DNA from: Phoronis australis
Taxonomy: Eukaryota > Animalia > Phoronida
Length of the DNA: 64,000 nucleotides
Assembly: GCA_002633005.1 (NCBI GenBank)
Contig: NMRA01000262.1
Coordinates: 322,298 to 386,297 of the forward strand
Reading direction: 5' to 3'
The position numbers were made by a program, and so were the translations under genes. Numbering within the stretch: the first letter of the stretch is position 1; every line of letters starts with the position of its first letter. Under the pieces are notes generated by a model. It did not search any database. It was not told the origin of the DNA and saw only the letters and a list, made by a program, of their open reading frames with translations. Below, in pieces: positions 6,244 to 64,000 of the stretch.

Positions 6244-6669
6244 AGAAAGTAAAACAAAGGGAAACATCCTGAGAATGAACTGTGAGTGATTCTCAAAGAT
6301 TAGGTGCAGGGTGATTTTATTGGTAGCTGAATATATGAATTTTGAGTCTAGTTTCAAGAAAAGTTATTGAATGGTTGTGAAAACTTGGTTGATTTTCAGT
6401 AATACCTGATGACAGACCAAATGTACCATTTGTTGTATGTTTGGATTCATAGTTCTGGTGTGCGTTCCTTAGAGGCGACAATCTTGTGAAAACTCATTAG
6501 TATGTGAGATGTTGCCACTGATGTGAAGTGAATCATGTGATTGCTATGCCTTCCTTAGCAATATTCTTGTGTCTACAAAAGTCTACCTTGTTTACTACAA
6601 GTATACTACATGGTGATAAGGCTACAAAAGCATTGTTGGTTCTGGTCTAGTCGGTGGTGTAGTTTTGTT

Positions 6670-8110: not shown

Positions 8111-9019
8111 ACCAATTTGAAGGTTGCAATTTTGGTTTGCTCATGGAACGAGTATCCTATTGCTGAGATTGGATTTTGAATTTAAGGTTATTAATGGTGC
8201 GAGAAAACGTCCAAATTTGACCCAGTGAGAACATATCTTAGAAATGGCTGTTGAGATTCGTGAGTAACTGTCAGATACTGGTATTATACTCTGTACAATG
8301 TTCTTCACACGCTATTAGGAATGATGCACTTTTGTATTAGGGACTATCAAATAACAGGTATTTCACGATTTTTATGAAAAAAATGAAAAATTACATAAAA
8401 CAAAAACAACACAATGTCTTAGAAGTTTTCATATTTCATCTGAAATATTCATTTCAAGCACCTCTGGCCATGTTGTTGATGTCGTTTTGTTATGAATGTA
8501 CCTTTCAGTTAATTGAATTTTTTTGAAATGACACGGTCACATGACCCAATGAACGGAAATTTGATATAGTGTGAAAAATCAAATTATACAGGTTTTTTCT
8601 TTCAGGAAATATAGATATTTCTTCTACAGTTTTATAGATATGTGGTTGTCGCCGGTACTCTTGGATAACATCTTACATTCCCTAAATATTCTCCAGTTTA
8701 GTACAATCTCTAAAATTTGGGACAACGAATTTCCAGTTAAAATTTAATGTTCTTGAAACTAAAGATTATCATAAGCCACGGGCAATTTTGGCATTAAAAA
8801 AAGAGACTGTGTTTTGTGTGAAGATTATCTGAAAATAGACATGGCTGTTGATACAAGTGTTGAAATCAGTGATGCAATGGTTTGATGCATCTCTATAGTG
8901 CGTGATATGGAGGTAAATGATCATTTGTCATTCACGATGTTTTGCTGGAGCGTTTTTACCATAATACTGTTGTTCCAACTGTTCTGTGTTCATTCATAAA
9001 TCTCTTTCTATACTTCCAG

Positions 9020-9199
9020 AAATGAGCCCTGAGCTTATTACAGCATATCTCAATGCAAATCCAACTTTTTTGGAAAGTTACATATTATCAAATGTGTCAT
9101 GTGATCAGCTGGAAAGACTGCTACTTCGAAGGTCATTAATTGAAAAACAAATAACGGGAAAATGTGCCGAGAAAGCAGTGCAGACTTTGGATGTTTCTG
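9020..9199 (+). CDS. PDE10A: PDE10-like exon 1 in window ([34 protein letters not shown]...)
   Basis: ttccag acceptor ending 9019, G|gtaagt donor at 9200. Resembles the PDE10 N-terminal 'AYL..HP..L..FV' helix. ATG at 9022, but the acceptor implies an upstream exon. Confidence 0.8.
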
Positions 9200-33100: not shown

Positions 33101-36100
33101 CCCACAACCCTCTTGACCCACAACCTGTAGCAATAGATATATCTTTGCGCTTTTATACATGTTTCATAATCATATTATGTAGCTGAATGACTTTCCCATG
33201 AGACTTACCTACACGCAAACCTGCTCTGGCTGAAGTCTGGTGGTTAAAAAACAGAAAGTTATGTATAACATCACCTGAAATAGCAAATGGTGAGGGTGCT
33301 ACCATTGTCAAGTAAATAGTTCCATGAGTGGCTAACAATGGCCATGCAGTTTTACTAAACTTAGGGAGAACATGACGGGATATAATTTCACGTTTTTATT
33401 ATTTGCTTTCTGTTGTATATTCGTTTACAATATAGTCCATGTACCATTGAGTTAATTTTAGTTAACAGTTTTTTCAAACTAGTTACTGAAGAAATTACAT
33501 ATTTGCCATTTTCTCACATTCTCCCCCAAAAACTTGAATCTGCCATTCACTGAGGAGCAGATGAGAGGATTACACTTTGCTGGAAACGACATTTGTAACA
33601 ATGATAGGACTTTGATTTGATTTGGCTGCGTTGTTTTTTTTTTCTGTTTTTGGCTTTCAAACTTGCCGAATCGACTCTTAATTGCAGGGAAAAACCAATG
33701 GAGCTCACGGCCCGACTCGTTGGTCCTGCAAGTCAGCACTTGTTCTATGTTCAAACAGAGTCAAGCTTGTGTAGACTGGGCCAAGGGGGTTGTGGGCTGG
33801 GGGTCGAGGGGGTCATGGGTCAAGGGGGTTGTGGGTTGAGGGGTCGTGGGGTGTGGGGATCAAGTGGGTTTTAGTTCAATCCTGCATTTATCAACAATCA
33901 CTGCTTACACATGACCAGTGCAACTTTTTGACATGAATTCTGTTTTAGGTCCATATTCCAAGACATAGTCAGCATGGACACACTTATTATGAAAATTATG
34001 GTAAGTGAACATTTAGTCCAGACTATCAAATAAGTATTTCTTAAGTTTGAATTAAACAATGTGAATTGGGATGACTGGACATTAACCCACCTTTCATCAC
34101 AAGCAACATATACGCAGCTTTCAACACAAGAAACATTTTTTGTCTTTAACCACTCACTGTCATCATGGTGTTTAATTGTTTCTTAGTCAAAATAGGTGTG
34201 ACTTGGGCTTCAAACAATCTGACTGTTTGTCATTGCTAAAGACCATTCTGTATAATTTGGTTTGTCACGGCTTGCCATTTTATTCATCACACATGGTCTC
34301 AAGGGATAACAAACTGTTAGTTCTTTGTAAGACCTATATAAACTCATTTGAGTAAGTCAAGTCAAGACCATTTCTATAGTGGAAAGCAAGCCTATGAATG
34401 ATTTGTCAGAGTTGGAAACAAGATGGTGCTTGCTATATAACTGCAAGTTGCATATGTTTGTTATTATGTCATGATTTTTCCATAATTTGGTAACAAGCGG
34501 GTTACAAAAAGCCATACCCATTGTTGTTATGTTTACTTTTGTGGTGAGGGGCAAAATTTTTTTTATTGTTTCTTCTTTAGAAACTGGATGAATGTTTATA
34601 AAGTATTACGGCTCTATAAGTTTAATGGTAACAGGATGCCTTATTGTTAAATAACCTTTAAAATAAGTAGTAGACCCATAAACCTAATATTTTTAAAGTA
34701 ATTAATGATCACAGAATCTTGTGAATGAAATCAATGCCTAGTGATGATTGAAATATCATAATTGCGTTTTTTTTCTAAACCACTTTCCATGGGGATTGCC
34801 AAATTTTTTGCAATCACCCTCTTTCACCGGAAACTTGCAAAGTCCGTTTCTGTACTTAGAATTGATGTTTGTGGAAATAATATGACAATCTCCGTGAAAA
34901 GTAGATTATTTAAGAAACCCAATCACATCATTGTAAACTTGTGGGTATTATTCTAGTGCACGTGAAAAGACTCTTGATCAAGTGGATTTTTAAAATATAT
35001 ACTTGTGTGGAGCTACTACTATTAATATGTAGTCATTTCTTGGTAATGAGGTTGTATAGTTGTTGGTAGAGTTCTTGGTAATGAGGTTGTATAGTTGTTG
35101 GTAGAGTTCTTGGTAATGAGGTGGTATAGTTGTTGGTAGAGTTCTTGGTAATGAGGTTGTATAGTTGTTGGTAGAGTTCTTGCTCAATGTTGAAATATAT
35201 CAAATGGTCTTCATAGTCCTTTAAAGGTATTTAAGGGCTTGTTATCTTGAAAGTGTTTTAGTCATTTTGGCAGATTTTACCATCTCCAAAAAGTATTTTC
35301 AACCTCCTTAGTTGATTTTTATTAAAACGATATTATTAATAATAATTATTCAAATTGCAAGTGGGATGCTCTATGCAATGCAAAGACTGTGTGTCAGATT
35401 GTGGTTGAATTGTTGAATTAGTTTTATTTCCTACTCTGTTATCTTTGCTTATTGACAAATGGTTATTCTGGGGTTATGTGGATATTTTGATTAAAGTTAA
35501 AATGTATCAGAATAGAGAAGCAACAAAACGCTCCTTACTTAAGTCAGGACCTTTCTTAAGTCACCTTACTTAAGTCACCTTACTTAAGTCAGGTGACAGG
35601 TGAACTCACTGCATCAATCTTCTTCTTGTCATTTTCATTAATTTCATGTTTATTGACATCCGCTAAAGATTCAAAATTTGTTTTGTAGCAATTAAACTGT
35701 GCCAAATTTAATACAAAATGCCTTTGAAAAAGGTAACGTTTATGTGATATGAGTGAGAAATGCATAGTGCAGCAATAACACCATTGACATGTCTTCATAT
35801 TTCAACATAGAATTTTGCCCAAAAACTGGTGAATGCTGATCGGGCTTCCCTGTTTCTCTTGGATAACTCGACAAATGAGCTATTTGCACGGATATTTGAT
35901 GTGGGCAATGGGATTGCCCAGAGTGGAGATGACCAAGAAATAAGGTTCAATAGCATGCTCTCGTGTATACCTTCCTACACTCAGTACACTTGCCAAGCCT
36001 AACAACTAAGACAGAAATTGGCTTCCAATTTTAGCAATACAAGAAGCTGTCGCCTCATTTTCTCGAAAGTTCTTCTGAAACTCATCTTTTCCCACAAATA

Positions 36101-38854
36101 TGTTACAATTCCAGTTTTACCTCTGGCTCAGATACCATCTGAGCTTCAGGCTAACAAGACAAATTAAAATCATGCTCAGACTTTGTTAATGGTGAATGCA
36201 GTTGAAGATTGAACACCTTTTCAAAAGGTTGGCAAGTGTGTGTTTGTTGTATTGACCATCTGTCTGCACACACAGGGTCAATGCACATCAGTGTCATGAT
36301 TGTATTATTTTGACCCTACAGCCCACACCCTCATTGTTTTGGTAGTCATGACAACTCATCAGATGGGGCAAATGATGCTTGTTATCCTCCTGCAGATTAA
36401 GAGCCCACATGCACGTTTGTGCTTGTATGCCATTATATGCCATAAAGAATTTTTTCTTCAAGAATTATGATAAAGCAGAATTCAAAATTTAGTTGAGAAA
36501 ATCATGGGCCCATTAGGAACGCTCCGTAGGATTGAAGAATGAGTAGCCTCAAAGTAAAATGTGGGAATGATCAAATATTTGCAGAAAACGACAATAACTG
36601 CAGTGAATTGGGAAGAGCTTAATCCAACGGTTTTGAGCTGACAATGAGTATAAGGTGTGAACTACTGCACAAATTTTGCATCACAAAAATATGATGAATT
36701 TTGAATTGAAGTAAAAGTACTGATCTCCATAGCACCAGATAGCAGCAATAGTCAACAATCCCATATGATCAGAGCACATTGTGTTGTAAAAAAGTCTCGA
36801 TGTTATGCTTTGTGAAAACATGCCGCTATCAATCAGACCTCTTACCCCCCAAATTATTATTGTTTGTTTGTATGTTTTCAACAGAATTTTGCCAAAAAGT
36901 TAGTACATGCCGACAGAGCATCATTGTTCTTGGTGGATAAGCTAACAAGGGAACTCTATGCCAGAATATTTGATACCGGAAAACTGACCGATGAGTCGCA
37001 CAGTCCCAGTACTGAGCGCGAGATAAGGTTTGGCATCTTAGTGAATTTCTGCTTTCACTCTCAGTAATGTTTCCTACTTGGCTGATTTGTTTTATTGTAC
37101 CAACTATAAGTTTCCTCTTGATAACAAACCTACATTGTAACAATCCATTTCAACAGCACTGTGTGCTCTTAAATGCGCTGTGGTGGAAAATAAGCTTATT
37201 ATTTTAAACCTATGACTGTCTTTTGCTCCCATGTCTTTTGTTGTACTTGTGGCCTGCTTTAGTGATTTTCCTTTTTGTTGTTGTTGTTGTAGTGATGTTC
37301 TTTTTGCTTGCTCACTGCATTTTTTATTCGTTTGTAGTCAGGTAAGTGTAGTCTGAGTACTTTAAATATGACAAAATTTGTTTTAATTATTTCTGATACA
37401 GTCTCATTGCTAGTTTTAGGTTAATTTTTGTTGCAAATTTGTCATAGCTGCCGTCACTGCAATTTGTCATAGCTGCCGTGACTGCAATTTTTTTTTGTTA
37501 ATTATTAAATCACACAATTGGCAGGCTTTGCAATGTCCATCTGTTTTTGTGTAATGCCCTTATTGTGTGGAGCCTAACTCAACAGATGGCAGTCAAATTA
37601 TGCACTGACAGTCATGTCACTGGTTTGGAGATTTGAATCTCAGTATGTCTAATCTCTGACCCATTTCTTGTGTTTTAAAAAATACTCTTTATTTGGGTCA
37701 GATATTGTAGAATACAGTTGTGTCTTTTTGAAGTTTCCTGTTGCCATGGCGAAATTCATTGGCTTCGGCTTCTGCACAAAATAATTGCCAAAGTTTCTTA
37801 TAACAGTTTTCAACAACTATTCAGTACAAACATTTATTTCTGATGAGAAAATTGAAGAAAATATGGTTGAAGTCCTCCATAATGCTTGCCAAATAGGTCG
37901 AGATGAATTTCATTTATCTAAATGATTTGAATTAAAACTTTGTTTTTTGACGTAGGGCAGGTTTATACCAGCACGAATGAAATTGTAGTTACAATACTTT
38001 AAACACTCATGGCATTTTTTATAATGTTTTTATAATGTTTATTACGAAATCTTCGATACAATGAATATTCATAACCCAGAAAGCACCAAGAGGCATTATA
38101 TCTGGGTTAAAAAAGTACAAAGAAATCTATATACAATTATTTTACACAAAATAAGAAATCTATATACAATTATTTTACACAAATACATAAATTAAAAAAA
38201 AAACTGTTGTTAAGATTACAATGACACATGGTTACGAAAGTAAATAAATCATTTTCATACACATGTACACAATTCTATCCACTCACACAAAGAGATTTAA
38301 TATTATAAAGAAATTTCATGGCTATTCCTGGTTCATTATTTACAATATTCCACATGTAGCCTGTATGATTATCACTGGATTCAGTCGGATAACATGGATT
38401 TCATTCTATGCAACAAGTGATATTAATTCTCTGAGCATAGTCACTCATGGCTACTTTGTGTGCATTCAGATAAGGAAGGGTATATATTTAAGACTTACCT
38501 GTGACTTGTCCATGTAGGTTTCCTATGGATAAGGGTGTGGCAGGGTACGTGGCCTCTACTGGCGCTATACTCAACATACCTGATGCCTACGCTGATGACA
38601 GGTTTAACAGGTATGCAGCTGTTATCTATATAAAAAAATTCCAATATATTTTAATATTATCAACCTTTAAGAAAATAGCATGTGTATTTTTGTCAAGGAT
38701 GTCCATAAGAATTTCAATAACATATTGCAAAATGTTCGCCTGAGGCTATATGGAGTTGACAGCCGGAGTACGCTTTGAAGTTTTTAACACTGCCAAAGCA
38801 ACGTATGCAAGGTTGAGGAAAATCAGCATCTTGGAAATGTTTTTATGCACCCAC

Positions 38855-38885
<31 letters not shown>

Positions 38886-41800
38886 GGAGAGTGTGTGTTT
38901 GTCACATTTTTCCCTGTGTGTGGGTGGGCGCAGGTGGTTACCAATCGTTTCTAATTGCTGTCGGTACAACGATAGCTTGAAGACTGGTTCGTTCACAAGC
39001 CTACTCAAAACGTCCGAAGTAATGTCTGTTTTATGCTCCAGCCAGTGTGTTCGTATGTTGTCATTTTGTCCAGGCATCAGTGTCTGCTCGAAATCTCAAA
39101 ACCACCTTGTCGAATTTTAATTAAATTCGGCACAAGGGTGCGTGGGCTTCACTAGAATGGTGCGTGCCACTTTTTAATCTGCTCCGCTTCCTGGGGTCAG
39201 TCAGGGGCGTGGCTTTTGCTGTATTGTTGGGAAGAGCGTTTCTGGATAGTACCTAGAGAACGGCTCTATGGATTTCAATGAAACTTGAAAGAAAGGTGTT
39301 TTATATCAATACACTATCACACTTAAATTTTCAGGTGGATTTAATCACTGCAGCACCTCCTAGTGGTCATTTTGTTCTTGGTGGCGGGTTCTTTCAAGTG
39401 TTGTTTTGGGGGCCAAATGATATCTAAAGAACTGATTGACTGGTTTCATTGGAAATTAAGACACAGGGGTATATGATGAGGTTGCACTGGCACCATTGCA
39501 TTTTTTGGCGGATTAGACAACTGCGGCACCTCATAGTTTTGGCTTTTTTGCTTCAGAGAGTTTCCAGATGTTATGTAGAAAACTGAGTGAAGGATTAATT
39601 TCAATTGAAGTGTTGTGGCAAAGGTATGTGTTGTCAATGTGCCAGCGCCATCAAATTTTCGTGTGCATCTGACATCCGTCAACACGTACCTTCTAAGGGC
39701 CATTTTATTCTTGACAAGGACTTTTCATGTGCTTCTTTGGACGGGAAGAGCATTTCCGGATGATATCAAGAGAACCGATTGACAGATTTCAATGACACTT
39801 GACATAGTGGTATATCATGAAAATGCGCCAGGACCATTTGACATTGGGGTGGATTTGATGACTGCAGTGCCTCCTAGTAGCCATTTTGTGTGAGAGCATT
39901 TTGAGATGTGTAGAGAACAGATTGAAAGATTTCAATGAATGTTGACATAGAGGTATTTGATGTCAATGTTCTTGCACCATTAAATTTTCAGGCAAATTTG
40001 ACATCTGTAGCCTCTCCTGGTGGCCATTTAGTTTTTAAAAATATGGTGGTTTTTAATTATTGTTTGGGGAAGAGCATTTCTGGGTGATATCTAAAAACAG
40101 GTTGACACAGAGGTAGAATATGAGATTGTGTCAGTATCATTTAAATGTTGGGCCAATTCAGCAACTGCAGCACCTCCTTGTGTCCATTTTGTGTGAGAGG
40201 ATTTTCAAGTATTGTTTGGGGAAGAGGGTTTCCGGAAGATATCAAGGGAACCTAAGTGGCAGACTTTGATAAAACTTAAGACATAGGTATTATGATGCCA
40301 ATGTGCCGGCACCATTTGATTTTCGAAAGCATTTGACCACTGCAGCACCTGGAAGTGGCTATTTTGTGGAAGATAACTTCCAGATGTTATTTCTTGAACC
40401 AATTGATGGAACTTGACACAGAGGTTGATTTCAAAGCGTTACTCCATTAAATTTTTGTGTGGATTTGACCACTGCAATACCTCCTAGTGGTCATTTTGTT
40501 CTCAAGTGGTTCTCACGTATTGTTGGGGGAAATGAGTGAGTTCTAGATGATATCAAAAACCAATTGAATGATGTCAACAAAACTTGACACAACTATGTAT
40601 GATGTCAACAAAACTTGACACAACTGTGTATGATGTCAATGCACTGGATCCTTCATTTTCGGAGTGTCAATTCGTCCACTGCAGCATCATGACTTTTAAG
40701 GAGCTTTTCAAGTTTTGATTGGGGAAGAGTGTTTCTGGATGGTATCTAGAGAGCTGATTGATGAATTTCAATGAAACTATTACAAAGTTATATATGATGA
40801 CCATGTGCTGGCATCATTTTTGTTTTCCACAAGAGGTAACTTTCAAGTGTTGGTTAGGGGAAGAGCTTTTTGTATTATATCTGGAGAATTGATTGACAGA
40901 TTTCAACGAAACTTGACTCACTGGTACATTATGATAATGCACCAGTGCCATGTGATTGCCGGGCTAATTCATTTACTGCAGCACCTCCTAGTGGCCTTTA
41001 GAACATATCATACACTATGCAACATGGGGGCATTGATATGCCTCCATGTTGCATAGTGTATTATACTCTTGTTATAGAAACTGTGAGGGTCTGCCAAAAC
41101 AATGTGCTTTGAAATGCTTTTGAACATGTCACTTACTATGGACAATCCCTTAATGAAATACCATAGTTGATTTAAACTTCTCAGAAACAAGTCGTCATGG
41201 TGGATAAACTTAAACAAGCAGAGTTATTAACCTTAAAACTGCATGTATGTAACAGCAAATCAAGTTAATATTAATGGTACTTGTGATGGCTATGATTCGA
41301 TTAAAATGTAGACTGTGATTTATTGTTTGCCATTGTCTAATTTTTCATACACAATTTATGTATTTGCAGAGATGTTGACCTTCAAACGGGCTACACAACA
41401 AGAACAATACTCTGCATGCCTATCTACATCAGGGGAAAGTAAGTAAATATTTAATACTTAAGATATTTTGTATTCATTCAAATTTTTATTGGCCCACATA
41501 TTTGTAAGTGGGTGCATTATGTCATCATTATGTCATCATTCCTGTCCATCCATCCCGCGTCCACTGCTCTATCTCCAAAACCATAGCGGATGGGCATGAG
41601 CTGTCTTACAACATCTCTTGTGGTGCTTTTTATTGCCCATCTTACCAGAGATTACCTATTATACGTTATTTACCTGTATTCATTATATTGTAATTGTATT
41701 AGTCATAATAAATGACCTTATATCCCCTACCTCGGTTTCCTTTTCATCTCTGGTAACGAGCTTGCGACGCACGTATCATTTATCTTTATTCGGGACATAT

Positions 41801-44800
41801 GTTGATCATATTAATTGCTTTCATGGATGGAATGGCATGGCCAAACTTTTGGATGTACTTCCCTACCAGTGTGCCCCCTTGTGGCAATTTTTTACATTGA
41901 TCTCTGTATCTTCAAAGGTCTTTAATGGATTTTCATAATATTTGGCATATAAGCATCTACTATCTTGCTGTTTTTGGATGAATTTAGGTATTTTGTCCCA
42001 CCTAGTGGCCATTTTTACTGTTTTCAAGTCCAGCCTTCTGCCAACCAAACCACTCTAAAAATGCTTCAGAAAATTGGCATATAAATTCTTACTGTAAAGA
42101 GGACTGCTGACGATGATTTTCCAGCGACTTCAACTGCTGTGTCAGGTTTTTTTTTACACCCATGGCTGTATCTCCAAAGCCCTCTGCAAGATCTTGAATA
42201 AATTTAGCAAGTGTATTTATATGAAATTGACAATGGATGACAACGATTTTTGGAGGAATCCGAGTTGTAACTGGTGTACTCCCTTTTAAGTGGCAATTTA
42301 ATTTTTTTATGTTTACCTCAGTCTATATCTTCAAAGGCCCTCAATGGATTTTCATAAAATTTGGCAAATAAGCATCTTCTAGTGAAGTGACGCTATTTTT
42401 CTGTTTTCATATGGATTCGAGGTATTTTGCACTACCTAGTGGTGTTTTTCACTGTTTTCAAGTTTGTTTTTGGCACCCACTCTTCTGTCAACCAAACCAC
42501 TCTAAGGATGATTGTGAAAATTGACATATATGTTCTTACGGTGAAGACAATGGCTGATGATGATTTTTCGACAAATTTGACTACTGTGGCGCCTCCTAGT
42601 GGCAGCTATGGTTTTTGGCTGTATCTCTTAAGCCCTCCACAGGATCTTTATTAAATTTAGCACGTGTATTTTCATGTGAGTAACAAGGGACGATGATGAT
42701 GACTTTCAGACGTATCCCATGAATGGTGGGCTAATTTCATTTTCTTTCTGTTTTTCTCTGTTTCTCTGAAGTTCCTTGCCGGTTTTTCTTGAAATCTGGT
42801 AAACAACTTTCTATTAAAGAAGCAATGACATGTTCCCGTGTTTTGCATGGATTTGACATATTTCGTGACATCTAGTGGCTATTTTTAATGTTTTCTAGTC
42901 TGTTTGTGGTGTCCGCCCCTCTACCAACCAAACCAACCTAAGGATGATTTTAAAAATTGGCATTTATGTTTTTACTGTGAAGAAGACGGTTGTTTGCATG
43001 GCTATCTCCCAAACCCTCTGCGGGATCTATATTTAATTCGGCAAGTGTATTTATACGAAGTTGAAAACGGCAAATTGAATGGATCCAAGTACCGCTGCAC
43101 CCCCTAATGGCAATTTTATTTTTTCATTACTTCCTTATCTTTGATATATTCTGCGCCACTTGGTTGTCATTTAAAAAATGTTTGAGTGTGTTTTTCATCC
43201 TTTCCATACACCAAACCGCTTGAATGCTTATAGTAAAATTTGGAGATGTGTTCTTGATCAGAAGGTTGAGGCTAACGCTCAGGGTTTTCGAACGTGTTCA
43301 ACTACTTTAGCCCACGAAGTGACAACTTTGCTTTTCTTGCGTGCGCGGCTGTATCTCCTTTACCCTTTACAGGATCTTTCTGAAACTTAGCAGATGTGCT
43401 AATTTTAGGCTAATTTTAGACTAATAGAGCTGTGCTCCCTAGTAGCAATTTTATTACTTGGCGGAATTCTTCGAATTCCGACAAGTATGTTGCTCTGTCG
43501 TCAAGTTTTTTTTTGTTCGCACTGTACAGGTCGCAATTTTCGTCGGATTCTCACGAAATTTGCACACGACGTGTAGATTGGAAAGTCCTGGAAGCCTATT
43601 GTTTTTGGTCATGATCAAATTCAAAAAAGGCGGACATGGCGGCCATTCTGTTTCCGATTTCAGAGTCAAATGCTCATAGAGGCCGCATTTTTCGACGTAC
43701 AGGGCTGAAACGTGGTACGATTATTATAGAACACATGTGCTACAACTGTGCCGAAAATCGTTGACTTCCAGTCAAAGATGGCGGAAATATTGGAAGTGGC
43801 GCATGCACCCCTCGATATCTGGCCGAAAACGTTTTCTCCTGTAGAGGGCGCATTGGCGAACCAATCACTTTCAAACTGGTCACGTGTTTGTTGCTTTTAA
43901 TCGGCTTTTATAAAATTTTGTTTAACCGGAAGTCACTTTCAAGATGGCGGCTGTGGCGCATTTTCACCCATTTTCAATTGTTCTGCTCTCGCATTTTTAA
44001 TGGGAAGAGCAAATGATGTGAATTTTTGCATGTTGATTCCTTGAAGTATGCTCTTTCAAACGTTCTGCGGTAACGTTTTTTCAGACTTACCGTTTTCGAG
44101 TTATTATACTGAATTTCAAAAAAACCCGCAAAATTTCAATTTTTTCGAAAAAATTATAGAATGTTGCGGAAATATCAATTTAGATAAAGTTTGGAACGGG
44201 CTTTCAGGAGAAGTTTTCCATTTTTCACTAGGACGTCTACTTTTTGTATTATTTGAGATTTTCTGATATCGCTGTTCCTTTGTTGAGCGCTCTAACTGCA
44301 TTGATGTTGGTTTAGTTTATTTGAACAAGACTGTAGTTTATTTCTTACTAATTTATGACATCTAAGTTCGTTGTATGAATGTTATGATGTTGTTCATCAT
44401 TGCCACCTTCATCATCGCAGTCATTGGCGTTAATTTTGCCTATTGTCGCTCAAGTCTGTAGGTAAGCACTGAACAGCCAGGCCGCGGCTACGGAGCATTT
44501 TCTAGTCCCTAGAATTTATGTTGAGGGCGTGTGTCAGGTTTGGCGGGTGGTTTGAGGAAATTGTTGACAATTGCCAAGAAACTTATTTACTTGTGTTTTT
44601 GAATGAGAAAAGCCAAGTTTTACCTACTTTTGATGCAAACTGGTGGCTGTCATTTGCTATCAACCCTTGTCGTCTGCTGTCCGAGAAAGCGGGTGCGATT
44701 TCAGGTGGCTGTCAGACAGATTAAATTTGCCAAAAAAGTAAATGGTAAGAGGCTTACTATTACCACATAGTTAGAATCTAGTGAGGACGAGCATTCTGAA

Positions 44801-50800: not shown

Positions 50801-53800
50801 AATTGAATTAGGCTTTTTAGTATAGTAAAATTAATCTTGTAATGTCACCTAGCATGATGTGATTCAGCTTGCATTCCCGACACAAAGCATCAGTTGTGTC
50901 AACGACTCAAGCAATGGCTCAGAGTTTAGGGTCGGCCAACCCTCAAGTTTGAAAGTTGTGCATGTACCCATTGCCTGTGACTCGTGCTGGTAATAGAAAC
51001 TATACGAATTCTATCATGCTGACGAGTGTCATGAGATTGTTTTAATAGGAGTATGTCAGGTCTAATTAGATTTTTGTTTTTGCCAGCTTAAAAGAGGGTG
51101 AAATGCCACTAAAAGTCTTTGAAGTGATATTATTGCGCTGAAGTAAAATTTGTGCATGGAATCATAAGAATATCACCTGTTTGATTAAGAATTAGCCAAT
51201 ATTACTTTCCTTGTATTTATTGATTTGATAAGTATTTTTTGCAATTTAAAAAAATCTATAGTGAGTTTTTACTATTTTGTGGCTGTCCAAATGCCAAAAG
51301 AGCTAGACACACACAGTGATATTTCCATATTTTATATGTCCATTAAGGTATGATCAAGAGACTCTGGTCAAGTTCACGCTGACAATACGCAAGAACTACC
51401 GCACCGTGCCATATCACAATTGGGCTCATGCCTTCTCAGTGGCACATGCTATGTTCACAGTCATCAGGACCACCAAGAATGACTTCACACCTTTAGAGGT
51501 AGGAGTGAACACCAAGCTGCAGAGTTCATGTTACTTTTTAAATATAGACAAAATCTCATTTTGTGCAAGGTTTAAGATAAATGTCATGATCATTTAGGGT
51601 GTTTAAAATTTAAATAAACATCCACTTCTCAGCCTGGCGAGATGGGTGAAGATTGTGTAAACTTTTCTCAAAATTATGACAGAAATAGACTACAAAATCA
51701 GGTGATCAATTTTGTTTAAAAGTATTGACGATTTCAATAAAAAATGATATTTAGTTGTTAAGTCTTTTAAAACATCAGAGTTTGGTCAATATGTCTTGCA
51801 AATATTGACCCTGTTAGATGGTTCAAGTGCCCAACTACAAGTTAGAACAGATTAAATTTTTAGTACAATTTGTCTTTTCCTTAAAATAATTCTAACTAAA
51901 ATGAGACTTGTTAATGTTCATAAAAGACTGGTCTGTTTTAAAGTGGCGCTAAACTCATGCATTTTGTCAAAAAACAACGAAATTTTGATGTGATCTCTGG
52001 AAAGCCCTGCATGTGGTGACTTCTTCAGACTTTAAGCTATAGTCAGGTCACACACGACCTGCAGTTCCTTCATAACATTTTAGGTCACACACGACCTGCA
52101 GTTCCTTCATAACATTTCAGGTCACACACGACCTGCAGTTCCTTCATAACAATTCAGGTCACACACGACCTGCAGTTCCTTCATAACATTTCAGGTCACA
52201 CACGACCTGCAGTTCCTTCATAACATTTCAGGTCACACACGACCTGCAGTTCCTTCATAACATTTCAGGTCACACACGACCTGCAGTTCCTTCATAACAT
52301 TTCAGGTCACACACAACCTGCAGTTCCTTCATAACATTTCAGGTCACACACGACCTGCAGATCCTTCATAACATTTCAAGTCACACACGACATGCAGTTC
52401 CTTCATAACATTTCAGGTCACACATGACCTGCAGATCCTTCATAACATTTCAGGTCACACACGACCTGCAGATCCTTCATAACATTTGAAGTCACACACG
52501 ACCTGCAGTCCCTTCATAACATTTCAGGTCACACACGACCTGCAGATCCTTCATAACATTTCAGGTCACACACGACCTGCAGTTCCTTCATAACATTTCA
52601 GGTCACACACGACCTGCAGTTTCTTCATAACATTTCAGGTCACACACGACATGCGGTTCCTTCCTTTCATTTCAGGTCACACACGACCTGCAATTCTTTC
52701 ATAACATTTCAGGTCACACACGACCTGCAGTTCCTTCATAACATTTCAGGTCACACACGACCTTCCGGTTCCTTCATAACATTTCAGGTCACACACGACC
52801 TGCAGTTCCTTCATAACATTTCAGGTCACACACGACCTGCAGTTCCTTCATAACATTTTCAGGTCACACACGACTTGCAGTTCCTTTATAACATTTCAGG
52901 TCACGCACGACATGCGGTTCCTTTAACATTTCAGGTCACATACGACATGCGATTCCTTCATAACATTTCAGGTCACATACGACCTGCGGTTCCTTCATTA
53001 CATTTCAGGTCACTCACGGCCTGCGGTTCTTTCATAACATTTCAGGTCACAGACGACCTGCGGTTCCTTCATAACATTTCAGGTCACACACAACCTGCGG
53101 TTCCTTCATAACATTTCAAGTCTCACACGAAGTGCAGTTCCTTCATAACATTTCAGGTCACACACAACCTGCGGTTCCTTCATAACATTTCAGGTCACAC
53201 ACCACCTGCAGTTCCTTCCAATCCCACAAATCACACCTATTTTGACCAAGGAACGTTAACTTTACATCTATGTCATGATACTATGTGATTGAAATCAAAA
53301 CTGTTTTTGACAGCTGTGTATTGTTGTTTTTAATACTTGTGATGTCTATCACTGATTCAATATGATCTTCGATCAGTGTCACAATGAATAATGGGCCTAT
53401 GCATTTGGTAAGGGCAATCTCAGCTAGTCATGTTTTTGTTATTATAGCAGTCAAGGAACTATAGTGCCCGCTGAACGCTACTCTAATTTATTGTTCCCGT
53501 TTGTCAATTTACTGGAGAAACAAAAAGTCAAGATGTGGGCATTAAATGAAATGCAGCAAAATTGGGTTATGTGAGATTTCAGTTTGAACATGGAAATTCA
53601 ACCTAACCTGAAAATACGGTATTGTGGACCAAGTGCATCAATCCTACGCAAAATCAACGTCGTAATTGTTTGAGGTTTTCTGTTCTAATCTAGTACGCTT
53701 TGCCTTATACATGGATGACAGTTGTTTCATCCTGGTTTGTACTTGATGTCCCAGACATTAAAGTTATCAGATGAGTATGAACTCATAGTCTCCCTTAAAA

Positions 53801-56800
53801 TCTGAAGTTTTGAGTTGTCTCAGACTAGCTCAAATCTAATGGCCATCATGTAAAAACATGATCACATAATATAAAAAATAGAAGCTTATTCTAAATTTGG
53901 AATACTAATCTCAAAAATACTTTCAAATTCAATTTTCAAGATTCCATGTCCTGAAATTCATTTTACTTTCTTTTGCCTTACGCTAGAGCCTGGTGTTGTT
54001 CGTTGCCTGTCTCTGTCATGACCTGGATCACCGTGGCAAGACCAACGCGTTCATGGTAAAGAGTGCCTCCCCTCTGGCCGCCATTTACTCTACATCGACT
54101 ATGGAGCACCATCATTTCAACCAAACTGTCTCAATACTACAGCAGGATGGCCACAATGTGTTCCGATACTTGTCACCTCAAGAGTACAAGCAGGTCAGTG
54201 GATGGTTTTCTGTCTGTGATACTGCAGGGTAGCCAGGGGTGTGTTCCACAGTGCGAAACACTCAACTGGTCGCTTGCAGCCAAAATATTTGGCTTGTGTG
54301 AATTTCTCCATTTTTCTGGGCTATGCTAGTAAGGTTGTGAGCTTTCTCTCAACACACTTGCCTTTCATCTTGTCAAGCTTTCAATTAGAATCTTATTTCT
54401 AAGGAATGCACCTTGGTCTTCCTCTCTTGTGGCCATTAGAGCATTCTCATCACTATTGTACTTTTTCATGAATAAACTTCTTTTACCACAGGTTGTATTT
54501 ACATTCCCACACATTGCAATTCTTTTCTTAAAAATATATTTTTGCAATGTACGAATTTCAGTTCAAACTCTTGAACGAGCAAGAGTTAGGAAATGTGCTT
54601 TTAACTTAAAACTGTTGAAATGTATCAATACTGTGTAACAATACTGTGTAACAATACTGTGTATGTATATGTATCAATACTGTGTATCTGTATGTATCAA
54701 TACTGTGTATCTATATGTATCAGTACTGTGTATCTATAGTACATGAGGAAAAATGTGCTCTGCAGAATGCTTAATATGACTTTTGAGAAAAACATCATTT
54801 TCAGATTTATTCAAACTGACTGTGGAAAAAATAATAATTCTTAATCCTATTTTTCAAAGGCTCCCTGCTTAGAAATTTCATCATTGTATAATTTGCTTAC
54901 TGTTATTCTGTACAAGACAAGCCAACAGCAAAGAAAATAAACTTTTCTGTAATGTTATTTTTTGATGATTAATGTGTCCAAAGGGAAATTAACTTGCTTG
55001 CCATACTGTGTTCCAAATTAAAGACTACTGTATTCAAACAAAAATAATGACCAACATTGTCTTTTTTCGTTTTTCAAATGCTCACTGTATTGCCAAAATG
55101 TTAAAAGTTTCATACTAATATATAGTTTTCAAATTATCAATAATTGTGTTTGGACACTCTCGTTGCAAATTTTACTAAACTTTTGATAAAATGAAAGTTT
55201 AACTGTTCTGCAACATTGTTTTCTAATTTGAAGAAACTTCATATTCTCTTCTATTGTAAAAATCACGCCTGCTCCAAACTAGAAGAAACTAAATGTTTGC
55301 AACAGCAAATCAAACTGAGGGTCATATAGTTGAAGTTCCTGGACCAGTTCATATACTTTTGGTTGCAGTGTTCGCAGAGTTGGAAATGTTAAATAACTTT
55401 GTAAACTTTCCTTCTCTTCACCCCATTGTTTGTATGCCTTTAAGATAGCGAAATCATTTACAAAATTTTCAAGTAAAGTAAAGATTTTATTTTTACCTTA
55501 TGCATGCTTTGACAAGAGAAAACTGGACAGTGCTCCTAAAATCATAAAAATATGTTGGTTAAATTCAGAATTGGTCAATTCAGTTTTGTTTCTTACTATG
55601 AAGAATGAGCTTGTTTGCAAAGTCTCTGGTGGCATTTTTATTGTCCATCTTTCCAGAGAGAATATTATTTCACGACTATATAGCTATTCTCTAACACTGT
55701 ATTGTACCACAATTCTCCTACACTGTGCTGTACCACTATTCTCCTACACTGTGCTGTACCACTATTCTCCTACACTGTGCTGTACCACTATTCTCCTACA
55801 CTGTATTCTCCTACACTGTGTTGTACCACTGTTTTCCTACATTGTGCTGTACCACAATTCTCCTACACTGTGTTGTACCACTGTTTTCCTACATTGTGCT
55901 GTACCACTATTCTCCTACACTGTGCTGTACCACTATTCTCTAACACTGTGCTGTACCACTATTCTCCTACACTGTATTCTCCTACACTGTATTCTCCTAC
56001 ACTGTGTTGTACCACTATTCTCTAACACTGTGCTGTACCACTATTCTCTAACACTGTGCTGTACCACTATTCTCCTACACTGTATTCTCCTACACTGTGT
56101 TGTACCACTATTGTCTAACACTGTGCTGTACCACTATTCTCTAACACTGTGCTGTACCACTATTCTCCTACACTGTATTCTACACTGTATTCTCCTACAC
56201 TGTGTTGTACCACTATTCTCTAACACTGTGCTGTACCACTATTCTCTAACACTGTGCTGTACCACTATTCTCCTACACTGTATTCTCCTACACTGTATTC
56301 TCCTACACTGTGTTGTACCACTATTCTCTTACGCTGTCTTGTACCATGACTATTCTAGTAATAATAAACAATCTATTCACACCAACCCCTGGTCTCCTTT
56401 TCATCTCATGCGATGCATGATTTTTATCTGGTCCAGGTGTCATGAATGAAATAGTAAGTGTAAGCATTATAATTACAGAGAGTGTACACTACCATAATTC
56501 AACTCCCCATTTCTACAGGAGTTTTCATTGGTAGTCCATGGATATTCCTTATTGAAATTTAAAATATGTTTACTCTGAAAAATGAGAATGCTTTTGTTTA
56601 TTTTCAGGCACTTGGAAAAATCAAAGAGTGTATCTTAGCAACAGACCTGGCCTTATTCTTTGGGAACAGAGCAAAACTTAAGGAACTTGTTGATCAAAAG
56701 AAATTTGACCCTACAATACTGAATCACAGGTAAAAAAACAGCTGCAATTTAAAGTGTTAAGACATGCAATTAACCCACTTACTATCGCACTCATCTGATT

Positions 56801-59800
56801 TAAAGCCCAAGATGTATAAATTGAAAATGTCAAATGTCAGGATGTAGAGAAATTTCCCTGTTGAAATGAAGTACTCATACAAACTGAAAGCAACTTGCTT
56901 ATTTTCACACAAAATGACTGAAAACAAGATTTAGTGTTACTGCCAATTTCATAGCTGATCCCAAGTTATGCCAATGTCCACCAAACTTTGATGAGATATA
57001 GTTTGATCAATTTTTTTGAATGGAAACAAGAGACTTATCAGAATATTTGGTCTGTAGAATTTGGGACATTGGACATTCAGTACATAATTGTATACAAGTT
57101 GCTGACTAAGTTGTCTTTGGGAGGACATTATGTTCAAGTTGCTGACTTAGTTCTAGTTTTGAATCTGTTCTTTTATCATTTTTGCGTGTAGAAGGTTAGT
57201 GGAGGCCATATTGATGACTGGATGTGACCTGTGTGCAAGTACCAAACCCTGGGACATCCAATGCAATACTGTTAGCGTTATATTTGAGGAATTTTACCTC
57301 CAGGTAGAGATCAATTGCCATAGATTACTGTCAATGCATGAGTCACTGTAGTGAAGAGTAGAGTTGTAGAAACAGTTTTCTACTGCATTGGAGGTGGTTA
57401 GTCTCACCTCCATGTACAATAATACCTGCTATAGGTTGGCAAGGCAATGTATGGGTGTTGTGAGTGGTGTGAGCTGTAGTCTATTTCTCTGAAGCCTGTA
57501 GTGATTTCTATTCTGAATATTAGAAGAAAACATGGGTTTATAGACTCTTTAAATTGCTTTTTTGAATGATTGGTCTATTACATCACTTCATTGTCAAAAT
57601 AATTACATAATGAGACAGTGAGAGACATTCACTCAAGCAACTAAGGATGACAAAGAAGGACAATCAGGACAAGAAAAATTGTAATGTATTTTATAGTATT
57701 ATGATGGTTGTTCTTTTTATTGATATAGTTATTATAATGTTGAATTTAGATGGTTTACAATCATGGCACACAACTAAGAGTTAAGAGCAACATTGTACGA
57801 AACAAGACAAGGCATGCAATAGTGTCAGTGCAAATAATAAATATATTAATAGATAATAAAACTATAAAGGATATTTTCATCGTGTTTGGTAGGTTTATTC
57901 CAAAATACACGAATACACAAAACAGTAATAATAAGTAAATAATTAAAGTAACAAATAAGATAAGGACACACTACAGACACATGGTAATAGGAGCCTATCA
58001 AAGAACTTCCCTTCATTGCTCTGTGATGCTTTGTAGTGTCAAAAAGGTGTGCTCCATTGCACGTTTCAAATGTCTGACACATACCATCATTATTTTTCTT
58101 TTGCCATAGTCGATAAAAAACGAATGAAATTTTTGTCATCACCGACGATTATTATCACTGAGAAGTAGTTACTTGTGCACACTTTAAAACCAGTAATTTC
58201 TTTTTGTCTTCATTGTTTTATACTTTACAGTGACCTCAACACCATTACTCTGAAACTTGTTTCTTGTTTGTAAATGTTATCTTAGAACTCCATTTCTGTG
58301 TATTTCTATTAATGACTCATATTTTACTACCAATTATCAGATCAGAAAAGCATCGGCTATGAATGATTGCATTTTGTTGCAAGGTTAGATAATTGTTTGG
58401 AATTCAAAACCAACAAAGAACTGGGAAAATGACATTGCTTTCATGCTTCACAATATTTAAATTTAATTTTTTTTTCAAAATTATTCACCAGGTTCATACG
58501 TACACTCGCTATTTTGTTTCATGATTTTCCTTTCTCACTCTCAGTTGCTGCCTGTTTTCACAACCTATTTGGCTCACACTTTTCCACTCTACTTTAACTG
58601 GTAGAAGCCTTTCCCCGCTCTCCACCTGGCAATCTTGCTCAGAGTGAAAAGCTACACTTGGAGCAGATCTGCTCCTATTTTTTCAGTGTATGTCAGGGTC
58701 TTATACCATTATTGCTAGTGCATGCTTTGATCAGTTCTTTACATCCTGGGTCCAGATCTGTTCATAATTGCTAGTGCATCATGGGCTTAGATGAACTCAT
58801 TTACAGTACAAGCTAAAAGAAAGCAGACACCATTTCCACATCATGGCTATCAATTCCGCCTGCATTTTTTTCCCGCTGAACTCGAACTGGAAATAACACA
58901 CCACGATGCATAATAACAGCTGTAATCTGTCATCATAACTCTAATGACATCATACCGGTCCATTACTTTGAACAACCAAGTACTTATGAGGCAACAACTC
59001 AACTACCAAAGTACATAATGGCACACTGCCCAATTACAAGATTTTTGCCCAGTGACAATCATAAAAGTTTAACTATACCTTTCAATCACGCAGAGTTTGG
59101 GTATTTTCTGTTAGCTGTTAGCGGACTGAGACCAATGCCTACGTACAGCTGAATTATGAAAAAAAAAATTTTACCGTAATCAGTTTGCAAAATACTTGCA
59201 TGGGATAAATATTTCTGCACGATTAGAGCAAAATTGTTCTCATGAACATTCTGATTCTGTCGCGTATTTTGTAAGCAAGACCATGTACCTTAAATGATGA
59301 ATTTGCGAAGCCTCAAAGTACTGCACAGGGCATCGGAATATGTTAAATTGTGCCCTTTAGAAAAAGATAACAATGTTACTAGGTGTTGTAATACCATAAC
59401 AAATAACAAAAAACAAAACATCAAATACAATCCTTTCTTCATGTGCTCAAAATTATCTTCATGAGACCAGGGACGGAAAGACATCAAATAATTAATAAAG
59501 CAACCGAAAGAATGAACTGTAGACCAATGAAAGCGGAAGGCGGAGATTTTTGTGGAAATTGTACATAAGAGTGTGGGCCTAAATCAGCGCTCTGGTGTTG
59601 TGTCAATATCATGAACAACATGAAATCAGTAGCACAGTACATGTACATGAATCAGTTTTAATTCGATGTAACTTGAGACAGAAACGCGGACTTTTGCATG
59701 TATAAAGTAGCAATGAGTGACCTAATTACAGTGTAACTGTCGCTTGCATTGGGATTCATCTTTTAAAGTTAACTTGAGGTTTGTTCACGATTGATTAGAT

Positions 59801-62800
59801 CAGAAATATAGGAACAACTAGCTATTCCACTTGAATTAAACATGACATGTCTACTCATACATGACATGTCTACTCATACATGACATGTCTACTCATACAT
59901 GACATGTCTACTCATACATGACATGTGTACACTTATACATGACATGTCTATTCATACATGACATGTCTACTCATACAGTTAATTCCGCTAAACATGACAT
60001 TTCTACTCATACAGTGCAGTTTCGCTAAATTATGTCAACTGAAATAGCATGGAATTTTATCTGCTCAGCAGGCCTGACTTGGAATACCTTTGTTTTTTCC
60101 GTTTACTTTTGGCTTGAACTGTATTAACTAGTGCATGCTGGGATCAGATCTGTTCACATTACTAAGAGTGCATATTGTAGATTCATCACGGCTTGGAATT
60201 TTCCTCTTTTAAGAGGATTACCTCTTTTTTGATTTCCACTTGTTTCCAGTTTCCCCTTTTTTTGTTTTTTTTTTCATTTTGACTTGATTCACTCAAAAAT
60301 GTTTATTTCAGTTAATTTTTACATCACAAAAATATCTCCATCGCACTATCCTATTTATTTGTGGAACGATACATCACCTGTCCTCGTTTTTGTCATTGGT
60401 CATTCCAAGCCCTGATTCATAATAGCTATAGTGCATGTTCTTGGGATCATATCTGTCGTGTAGCAGGATCAGATCTTTTCACATATCTGACTAGTGCATG
60501 ATGGGATCTAGGTTGCATCCTATAGATACAAGGCTGTAGTCACGTGATAGTGTAATCATGTGCTTCCCTTTTAATGGATGGCAACATTTTGATGGTGAGG
60601 AAGTACATGATAACAATTCTCTCACAAGAAACTTAATTGGTCTCAGGAACGCAATCCAGATCTGTTCACATAACTAGGGGATGATGAGGTCATATCTGCT
60701 CATATAACTAGTGCATGATGAAGTCATATCTGTTCATATAACTAGTGCATGATGAGATCAGACCTCTTCATATAGCTAGTGCATGCTTGTCGTTGTTGCT
60801 ATCGTCGTAACTGTTGTCATTCTAGAGAGATGTTGATGTACCACAGTATGACTGCTGCTGATCTTTGCTCAATGTATAAACCATGGAACCTCCAGGTCAA
60901 GTTAGTTAACATCATTATGGAAGAGTTCTGGCAACAGGTAATGCATGTTGTAGCAACACAATATGGTAGTTATATAACCATTAAAGCCATTGGAAATTAA
61001 TGTTTTTTTCTAAATGTTGTTATGTGTAGCTTATTGTGAGATAGCCTGTAGCCTGGCTGCTACATGAAGTAGTGACATTTTGTGAGCTTATTACATGCCA
61101 TCTGTTTATCATGTTGCCTAATGATGGAACATAAAATCATTCATTTGAATTTGTTCACAATGTCTTCATGATGACATCCATTTTTATTTTCTGATAACTT
61201 TCAACATAAACAAGCAGATTCTCCTGGAACAGTACCCAAACTTTTGCTTCTTATTTTCTTCCCAGTAAAATCAGGGACTTCAACTTTTGTAGACTGTCAA
61301 TTTTTAGTATTAAGCTTATGCTGATGAATGTTTTTCAATCCCTGAGCGTTTTTGGCGGCATGCCAGCAGTTTTCCCAAATGTTCCTTGCATTAGTCAAGT
61401 GAAATAATCTATGTTTGTAAAGATGGCAAAATTTGACAAGGTTAAGCTGGTCCATCCTACACAGCGATACTGGAATCTTGCTGTATTTACCCAGGATGTT
61501 ATAAACATCCGTCGGAACATTTGCTCTCTCCTTTTCGTGCCATTGGAATTACACTTATTTGTTGTTGTCTGATTCTTTTCAAGTTTTATTCGTAATTCCA
61601 ATGCTAATAAAGTATTACTGCTGTGTTATAGGCTGCATCTCCGATGTGAGAAATTTTAATAAACTGGACAGTCAAATGCCCATGTATACGTGATGTGATA
61701 TTCTTTGCCTTACTGACATCAATGAGAGACACAAAAATGTGCATGATTTCCAAAAAAGAGGTCACAGGCGTTTTTATCTCTGGGACAAATGAGAGTTCTA
61801 TTGCCCAACTGAGACTAAACCTTACAAATATGAATTCAAGCACTTTTACAGAAGGTGTTGGAAATGTTCCCCATCGGCATCTAAGCACAATTTAATTCGC
61901 ACAGCTCTATGGAATACATTAGTCAAGAATGAAATTGACAAACTACTGAAAAAACTCTTATAGGCACATTGAGTGCTACATGAAGTTTTGAGCCCCAAGC
62001 TCAAGCAGAAAAAATTATTACGAAATGTTTGTGGCCAAGATGTCTAAGGAGATTCACCTTGTATTCAAACTTTTGTATGTTTTTTCCACAAATATAAGCA
62101 GTGCACTATGTTAGTGTGAGTCACAAATACTTATGTTCACTTACAACCATTTCAGGGTGATGAGGAGAAGACACAAGGAATCCAACCTATAGCTATGATG
62201 GACAGAGCCAAGGCACACCAGCTTCCTCAGAGCCAGGTACTGTTTTAACAAGCACTTCCTGCAATACCACAGTGCTCTTTTGATTCTGCAGTATTTACCC
62301 ACAAACCTGTGCATTTGCTGGGCACTTCCCTCACAGCTGTGCACTGCTGCTGTGTTAATAACTATAGTTTGCCATTTGTCATCATTCTTACGCCAATAAA
62401 ATTTTAAGTGAGTTGCAATACAAACTCAAGTCCCTGGGATCCACACACATAGTTACACTAGAACAACTTGCACTAGTGCAACTTACCATGGGCGGCGCAG
62501 CACTGAAAAAAGTGGGGACTATCAGCCCCCCTGTGGTACACCGCCCATAGACCATGGGTGCCAGAGCACTGAAAAAAGTGGGACTATAGCCCCCAGCCCC
62601 CCTATGGTGCGCCGCCCATGCTTACCCCTCTTTTAAGTGGAGCTTCCACATATATCCAATAACTGGGCCAGGTGCCTTCATCTATTCTCACTCAAGTCAA
62701 GGTAAAAATAATTCAAATTAAGTTAGTGTGTAGGTAGTTAATAGAGAAGATATTCTGGACACGTCCTAGTAAGTGCACACCACCAGGACAAGTAATGCCA

Positions 62801-63318: not shown

Positions 63319-64000
63319 ATTGTGGGATATCACATTTTACAGCAATTGCTTTGATACCAGTCATTTACTTCTGCACATTTAATTTCACATTGTGAAACGT
63401 ATGTCAGTTGTTGACAATAATTGTCATATACCATATTTGCAATACGATGAAGGGAGCACCTTGCTACTTTCTGCATAATATTACTTTTAGACTGTGACAT
63501 GCAGGTTAATAGTCAGGTGTGGAACAAGAGGGGGCCTACAGGGTTCAGAACTCCCCATCTGAGCTTTTGCTGTGTTGTAATAGAAGAATATAATTTGGCA
63601 GTCTCTTGTGAAACACTTGCAGTAACTGAAGGAAACTGTGTGCCATTGACAATAGATGGCGCTGGCTTCACAATGAGAATTTTGAAAGGTATACTAAGAA
63701 AAAAGGGACAAAAAACAAAATCTCCACTTTTCACCCCAAAACCACCACTTGTTTGCCGATGCACAACTAAAACCAACATGAGATTTTGAAACCAAATTTC
63801 CTACCAATTCCAAAACTGGTTCAAAAGTACTGTCAACCAACTATTTCTTTTGCAAATCTGGCTACCTAAAATCGCAGCCAAAATCTCGTTACCCAGCCGT
63901 GCAAAATTGCAACAGGGGCCGCCATCTTGAAGAAGAGTGCAGCTACAGCCAAGCAAGTGATGTTTTTCATTTTCAACATGTTCACAAATACAAACAAACC

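Follow-up and report, generated by a model that had tools for sequence, protein, structure and literature searches.

The DNA analysed here is a stretch of 64,000 nucleotides (nt) from Phoronis australis (contig NMRA01000262.1, positions 322,298 to 386,297 of the forward strand), referred to below as the window. It holds one large plus-strand gene for a phosphodiesterase (PDE) of the PDE10 type, with 24 coding exon positions between 9020 and 63318 and canonical splice sites. An earlier reading of the sequence, hereafter the original prediction, had reported that two of these positions, 12 and 21, are each occupied by a pair of paralogous exons, one in the GAF-B domain and one in the catalytic domain. 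A third position, exon 9, which the original prediction missed, is likely duplicated as well. The exon model was obtained by reading the sequence and by scanning it for open segments bounded by AG and GT. A candidate start codon lies at 9022 and the stop codon at 63316-63318. The gene and the exons of interest are the following:

9020..63318 (+), PDE10/pde-5 gene with 24 coding exon positions, from the exon model and the names of homologues
25910..25968 (+), constant exon 8, in which the GAF-A strands end, lying upstream of cassette 9
26546..26596 (+), 51-nt exon 9x (phase 0/0), likely the extra copy of a third cassette, found by profile score
29946..29996 (+), exon 9, ancestral-type copy, running from the last GAF-A helix into the linker helix to GAF-B
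33949..34000 (+), constant exon 11, shared by both exon-12 copies on the upstream side
35811..35944 (+), exon 12a, ancestral-type GAF-B exon (Gln279, Val306), 134 nt, with a weak donor (GTTCAA)
36885..37027 (+), 143-nt exon 12b, the derived form of the GAF-B exon, with Lys279, Thr306 and a longer loop
38518..38610 (+), constant exon 13, shared by both exon-12 copies on the downstream side
53987..54193 (+), constant exon 19, HDxDH motif
56608..56729 (+), constant exon 20, shared by both exon-21 copies on the upstream side
57192..57303 (+), 112-nt exon 21a, the catalytic pocket exon of ancestral type, with Ser678, Phe693 and Tyr697
60826..60937 (+), exon 21b, spiralian-type pocket exon (Met678, Met693, Trp697), 112 nt, joined to exon 22 in RNA
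62156..62236 (+), constant exon 22, whose last residue is the invariant Gln726; single here, duplicated in some relatives
62836..62924 (+), constant exon 23
63246..63318 (+), exon 24, with which the coding sequence ends

By its sequence, the gene belongs to PDE10, a GAF-containing class I phosphodiesterase, and is closer to this family than to PDE2, 5, 6 or 11, in agreement with the original prediction. Its closest database matches bear the names pde-5 and PDE10, and the spliced frame can be aligned over its full length, at 63-65%, with such proteins of Lineus, Tubulanus, Owenia and Lingula, which are also the nearest rows in a tree of the constant exons that puts the gene among slow-evolving lophotrochozoans. 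Such relatives carry PF01590/PF13185 (GAF) and PF00233 (PDEase), with tandem GAF domains followed by the PDEase domain. Exon 19, which encodes the metal-binding HDxDH motif, finds its best solved-structure match in PDE10A (92 bits; PDE2 reaches 69 and PDE5 62); the short exons 21a and 21b, taken alone, score slightly higher on PDE5/6. The metal Asp (Asp674) is present in both 21a and 21b, and the invariant Gln (726) stands at the end of exon 22, where it aligns with sturgeon PDE10A. The Tyr693/Gly725 pair of the vertebrate PDE10A selectivity pocket is replaced: position 725 is Ser, and position 693 is Phe in 21a and Met in 21b. This pair is a vertebrate feature that is absent from most of the invertebrate orthologues examined too, and its absence therefore limits the analogy, not the orthology. 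Dual hydrolysis of cyclic AMP (cAMP) and cyclic GMP (cGMP), with activation by cAMP through GAF-B, is a trait of the PDE10 family and may hold for this gene as well. The first Met aligns with about residue 50-120 of the relatives, whose N-termini are longer, so extra 5' exons may exist upstream; none was identified in positions 1-9019 of the window.

The paired exons 12a, 12b, 21a and 21b are all intact, each with an AG acceptor, a GT donor and matching phases, at the coordinates originally proposed. If each of the four is either included or skipped, 16 combinations arise, and the 4 with one exon per pair give full frames of 767 or 770 residues. The remaining 12 stop early, upstream of further exon junctions, and early stops in such places are substrates of nonsense-mediated decay. 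Joining 12a to 12b reads R-I-L-P-K-S-stop, and joining 21a to 21b leads to TGA at the 12th codon of 21b. Both readings are exactly those given in the original prediction, whose claim that including both or neither member of a pair breaks the frame thus holds.

Are these old exons or a fresh duplication? In a scan bounded by splice sites, all four exons match homologous exon segments with scores of 144-165; for exon 21, no unrelated candidate listed in the same introns rises above 23, and for exon 12 the lower-ranked rows listed all overlap 12b. Residue identity between 12a and 12b is 24 of the first 32, and between 21a and 21b it is 15 of 37. Codon positions 1, 2 and 3 are identical in 22, 28 and 13 of 32 codons in exon 12 and in 21, 23 and 16 of 37 codons in exon 21, and identity in the introns flanking the copies is 14-26 of 60. 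This codon-position pattern, together with the diverged flanking introns, argues for old copies that have been conserved as protein. An assembly artefact or a haplotype duplicate was rejected in view of the many synonymous differences, the unrelated flanks and the presence of an orthologue of each copy in other phyla. The pairs at 12 and 21 are very probably real, old, mutually exclusive exons. The intron scan found no further copies of exons 2-8, 10, 11, 13-20, 22 or 23, and no third copies of 12 or 21.

The list of cassettes was incomplete, however, as originally drawn up. Relatives have isoforms that exchange the 51-nt exon 9 too, and the scan of every intron returned one new candidate, 9x, in intron 8 (26546-26596), upstream of the coordinates considered before. 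It is exactly 51 nt long, is bounded by AG and GT and has phase 0/0. On a profile built from 63 homologous exon-9 segments it scores 12.6 bits, which ranks second among 127,900 six-frame 16-mers (exon 9 itself is first, and the next scores 4.1), and it also ranks second among the 74 open AG-51-GT candidates on the plus strand. The score is at the low end of the range for real variants (1.9-39.2, scored with close relatives left out), and the acceptor is weak (0.5 bits on a matrix built from the gene's own sites). Exon 9x is, on this evidence, likely a third duplicated cassette copy. Cassette 9 is frame-neutral, in that both copies or neither keep the reading frame, and an Owenia gene model holds both exon-9 copies in tandem; exclusivity of this cassette is therefore not enforced by the frame. 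The estimate of up to four enzymes stands for the four full frames from cassettes 12 and 21, but is probably too low, since 9x and 9 bring the number of frames with one copy of each to eight.

The introns between the copies are long (940 nt for 12a-12b, 3522 nt for 21a-21b and 3349 nt for 9x-9) and the AG-free zones short (33-50 nt), so no steric splicing lock is apparent. Cassettes 12 and 21 are set apart by roughly 990 nt of constant exon sequence. A look for docking and selector RNA pairing in the window sequence, with no control and no DNA of relatives, gave only short or imperfect inverted repeats and nothing convincing. One 15-nt pair that is 93% complementary (35184-35198 and 35797-35811) has its second arm over the 12a acceptor, and may be due to chance.

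Isoforms of relatives were collected through two homologue searches and 30 cluster look-ups (at most 15 members each) and grouped by hand into 42 groups, 21 of them spiralian, 6 ambulacrarian and 15 cnidarian, arthropod or amphioxus; these are database gene models, not reads, and misses may be due to sampling. Two versions of exon 21 occur in at least 12 of the 21 spiralian groups and in all 6 ambulacrarian groups. Among the spiralians, exon 9 has two versions in at least 12 groups, exon 12 in at least 6 and exon 22 in at least 4. No second versions were seen among the models listed for the 15 cnidarian, arthropod and amphioxus groups. In the RefSeq isoform sets that were checked, no isoform holds both copies of a pair, and Haliotis rufescens has gene models of all four combinations of cassettes 12 and 21. 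Read-through models of the Nucella, Biomphalaria and Bulinus genes have the copies in the same order, a before b; the two Lingula proteins come from separate scaffolds. The second copies that had been expected in related species are thus present, one per transcript, in spiralian and ambulacrarian models.

When did the duplications take place? In the exon-21 tree (37 columns, four long rows dropped), the spiralian b type forms one starred clade of 16 rows (99/98), which marks the exon-21 pair as ancient, and the ambulacrarian second copy forms a separate clade (99/98). The full tree gives 92/87 for a b-type group that includes three of the four long rows. The 21a and 21b copies of this genome are rejected as sisters (p value of the approximately unbiased test, p-AU, 0.024), and a joint origin of the spiralian b type and the ambulacrarian second copy is neither supported nor rejected (p-AU 0.52 on 37 columns). 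Exon 21 was duplicated either twice, or a single time in the ancestor of bilaterians, followed by losses. Single-copy outgroups carry an a-type exon 21, and their exon 12 segments are also of the a type. Bivalve and bryozoan models have the 12b type only, from which it follows that copies do get lost.

Some of the relatives have peculiarities of their own. The rotifer Rotaria sordida (P0110/P0286) has two exon-21 versions that are both b-like, suggesting a further duplication, and P0075 (a Logan record), a protein that is PDE10-like but divergent and sits on a long branch, has an exon-21 segment resembling the b type; it was left out of the main tree. Two exon-22 versions are found in Magallana (P0267/P0273), Lingula (P0038/P0238) and Lineus (P0012/P0121). 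In oysters and Lingula, one of these has Glu, not Gln726, as its last residue, and in many mollusc models the Glu type alone is seen; exon 22 in the window is of the Gln type only. This Glu/Gln swap could matter more for nucleotide selectivity than cassette 21.

Three raw-read RNA runs labelled as the same species (X1-X3) were used, of which about 18-19% each was mapped, covering 56400-63700 and 33900-38700. The junction-read check that came with the original prediction was positive for the 21b-22 joint (GT..AG), which is found in 3 of 3 runs, with 3, 8 and 3 reads on the strand expected for the gene. These counts are comparable with those for the 23-24 junction (6, 7 and 2 reads, expected strand), and 21b therefore carries a large share of the transcripts in these samples. 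Depth in the bin holding 21b is 5.1, 4.3 and 1.3 in the three runs, and in the bin holding 21a it is 3.7, 0.5 and 0. A fourth RNA run, which consists of contigs only, added nothing over exons 11-13. Four intronic stretches (38020-38320, 60180-60416, 61460-61750 and 62450-62630) have high, two-stranded, partly matching RNA coverage and are interspersed repeats transcribed elsewhere.

What, then, do the cassettes exchange? Catalytic residues are numbered here after PDE10A2, by transfer through sturgeon PDE10A (the spacing fits the published numbers), and the lists of residues were taken from review articles and one docking paper. Exon 21 had been proposed to line the catalytic pocket, and 5 of the 11 PDE10A2 active-site residues listed in PMC12571622 (Val678, Thr685, Ala689, Ile692 and Tyr693) indeed fall within it. 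At these positions 21a and 21b have Ser/Met at 678, Gln/Gln at 685, Val/Val at 689, Ile/Ile at 692 and Phe/Met at 693, so that two of the five differ. Across ten paired species, 21b has Met678, Met693 and Trp697 in all ten and Met666 in nine, and 21a has Ser678 in eight and Phe or Tyr693 and Tyr697 in nine each. The class differences are thus held across phyla, with class-specific pocket residues shared by molluscs, ribbon worms, brachiopods and annelids. Both copies share Gln685, Val689, Ile692 and Phe696 in all ten paired species; Gln685 is presumably the counterpart of the PDE5 residue that orients the invariant Gln. In the AlphaFold model of a nemertean orthologue (P0139), exon 21 forms two helices around the metal Asp. 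The model has a mean predicted local distance difference test (pLDDT) score of 73.5 and a predicted template modelling (pTM) score of 0.48, and its domain packing is therefore not trusted.

For GAF-B, the published numbering appears from its spacing to follow PDE10A1, which is 10 residues shorter than PDE10A2 (transfer was through 2zmf); Phe290 is F300 of PDE10A2, and F300 and F334 are named for PDE10A GAF-B in an excerpt of PMC6955301. Cys287 is reported to matter for the binding of cAMP, and Asp305, Ala330, Asn353 and Gln383 contact a docked ligand in the GAF-B pocket (PMC6151459, in part). At the positions that match Cys287, Phe290, Phe304 and Asp305, 12a and 12b agree in all 7 paired species apart from one Ala/Thr at 287, and Ala330, Asn353 and Gln383 lie downstream of the cassette, in constant exons. 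Because the cAMP-contact positions are the same in both copies, the swappable GAF-B ligand sensor of the original prediction is not supported; what changes is a surface loop. The two exon-12 classes are separated by Gln/Lys279 in 7 of 7 pairs and by Val or Ile/Thr306 in 6 of 7 (Asp in Biomphalaria). The best solved-structure match of 12b is PDE10A, as is the best PDE match of 12a. In the P0139 model, exon 12 contributes the end of a helix, two strands and a loop of low confidence (residues 351-370, a coil with a pLDDT of about 56-61), which holds most of the 12a/12b differences. Exon 9 falls within the long helix that leaves GAF-A (helix 266-311).

The preferred reading, to which a probability of about 0.6 may be given, is that splicing picks one copy per cassette and so would produce PDE10 enzymes with a differently tuned pocket (cassette 21) and a differently tuned allosteric path (cassettes 12 and 9). 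Tandem exon duplications would have provided two copies each of the GAF-B exon, the catalytic-pocket exon and, likely, the GAF-A/linker exon. Double or zero inclusion of cassettes 12 and 21 would presumably be cleared by nonsense-mediated decay; cassette 9, being frame-neutral, would need another control, and the choices may be regulated by tissue. In the 21b enzyme, Met678 and Met693 (for Ser and Phe) would reshape the purine-binding pocket and thereby change the Michaelis constant, turnover or inhibitor sensitivity, with the metal Asp, the hydrophobic clamp and the invariant Gln still in place. Exon 12b would spare the nucleotide contacts and alter the loop after Asp305 and the helix before it, thus tuning the signal from GAF-B to the catalytic domain, and the 9/9x swap would alter the long helix that links GAF-A and GAF-B.

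A number of points weigh against this reading. RefSeq isoform combinations can be short-read assemblies, and are no proof of independent pairing. The exon-12 tree is weak: the derived group has 48/81, and a sister pairing of 12a and 12b is not rejected (p-AU 0.36). Exon 9x is a candidate called from the sequence. No 21a junction is among the 15 joints listed of 55; 20-21b and the obligatory 22-23 are also not among them, and the lack of a 21a joint there is therefore not absence. Over exons 11-13 the depth is about 0-1.6, too low for any junction, and none was seen over 33900-38700. The a-type copies of Haliotis and Patella already have Met678, which means that position 678 is not a strict class marker. 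Finally, the activities of the isoforms are predicted only, substrate specificity being unevaluated even for C. elegans PDE-5 (PMC12346295).

The original prediction went a step further and envisaged a splicing-encoded cross-talk switch, in which cassette 21 would flip the cAMP/cGMP substrate preference and cassette 12 the activating ligand. Exon 21 does cover the purine pocket, Met693 of 21b matches PDE4 Met337/Met411 by spacing, 19 residues after the metal Asp (excerpts of PMC13095499 and PMC11820465), and invertebrate NALCN shows that exon swaps of selectivity residues exist (PMC3557258, in part). Such a switch is nevertheless unlikely here. The PDE4 Asn (Asn321/395) is found at 677 in neither copy (Ala in all 21a, Ser or Ala in 21b), the GAF-B contact positions are unchanged, and, unlike in NALCN, no known identity-setting residue is cleanly swapped at the catalytic site, where 685, 689, 692 and 696 are shared and the invariant Gln sits in constant exon 22. 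The sequence basis of nucleotide specificity is itself disputed (PMC12982385, in part), so that a flip is not something the sequence can show. A true flip is possible at the catalytic site, without a clean determinant, and unlikely at GAF-B. It is likewise doubtful that 21b represents an ancient spiralian substrate switch that shifts cAMP/cGMP preference, with a parallel or shared duplication in echinoderms and hemichordates and, through cassettes 9 and 12 (and 22 in relatives), at least eight PDEs per gene. If this were true, splicing would do what vertebrates do with separate PDE genes, and the natural matched pairs would serve to probe how PDE nucleotide selectivity is set.

Conversely, the isoforms might be nearly equivalent as enzymes, the copies being kept for partner binding, localisation, stability or dosage control through transcript decay. 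The concentration of 12a/12b differences in the low-confidence coil loop would suit this, as would the several 21a/21b differences that lie off the listed pocket positions (663-669 and 686-691) and the premature stops created by double or zero inclusion, but selection on the pocket accounts more readily for the fixed changes across phyla at two of its listed positions, which makes near-equivalence rather improbable. It is very unlikely that one copy per pair (such as 21a, 12a or 9x) is vestigial in this species and that essentially one enzyme is made. Every copy has an open frame in the right phase, 21a shares 78% identity with the a-type copy of Lineus, 12a keeps every conserved residue, and in run X1 the depth of 3.7 in the 21a bin compares with 1.0-1.8 in the next three intron bins, which is suggestive only. 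In favour of a vestigial copy are the facts that 21b-22 is the only cassette junction among the joints listed, that the 12a donor (3.3 bits on the matrix from the gene's own sites) and the 9x acceptor are weak, and that copies get lost, as in the 12b-only models of bivalves and bryozoans.

The class of mechanism is known from NALCN, myosin, oyster AOX and PKM (PKM1 and PKM2 differ in allostery), and the system is apparently undescribed in a PDE. Vertebrate PDE10A (2oun for the catalytic domain, 2zmf for GAF-B) has the same domain order of GAF-A, GAF-B and catalytic domain, but its splice variants, of which there are at least 18, differ mainly at their ends (PMC12571622, in part), in agreement with the original prediction. 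C. elegans PDE-5 and the single-copy invertebrate PDE10 orthologues belong to the same family (PMC12346295) and have exons 12 and 21 of the a type; the difference is that one isoform is listed for PDE-5 (PMC12346295). Mutually exclusive exon events are known in human genes (PMC9741552, in part), and a word search of the supplements of PMC8373072 and PMC9741552 found no PDE gene in the human tandem-exon catalogue, with PKM present. In NALCN, exons 15 and 31 are mutually exclusive exons of a single gene at a selectivity site, conserved from flatworms to non-chordate deuterostomes but lacking in vertebrates (Senatore et al. 2013, PMC3557258, in part); there a known selectivity residue is swapped (EEEE to EKEE or EEKE), whereas the PDE10 enzyme has no cleanly swapped determinant. 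In muscle myosin heavy chain, several clusters of mutually exclusive exons (MXEs) tune one enzyme from one gene, and these were gained in protostomes and lost in vertebrates and nematodes (Kollmar and Hatje 2014, excerpts of PMC3912159). Oyster AOX is a mollusc enzyme with a duplicated exon (PMC5589949, in part). Myosin heavy chain, AOX and PKM are, however, other proteins, none of them a second-messenger enzyme; with the present gene, such an enzyme would join the few invertebrate genes that are tuned by several clusters of duplicated exons. PDE10 isoforms already stand in RefSeq annotation, unnamed (X1..Xn). No prior description in PDE10 was found in the literature searched, whose coverage left out most subscription journals, bioRxiv supplements and databases of predicted MXEs. 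With the choice of PDEs between cAMP and cGMP still under dispute, natural enzyme pairs that are identical save for one 37-residue pocket segment would offer a direct test of PDE selectivity.

Elsewhere in the gene, exon 17 has two candidate donors 6 nt apart (50648 and 50654), both in frame; the first is used in the model and the second scores higher. At 48790-49050, a 70-nt unit present four times copies the exon-16 acceptor and the first 39 nt of that exon, with GT after each, and yields three extra in-frame 39-nt micro-exon look-alikes at 48799, 48869 and 48939. This could be a recent tandem repeat or an assembly effect; if spliced, it could add 13-residue repeats to the linker helix. Long tandem repeat arrays also occupy parts of introns 18 and 19 (52040-53200 and 55700-56340), and many shorter arrays of 4-9 copies occur throughout the window.

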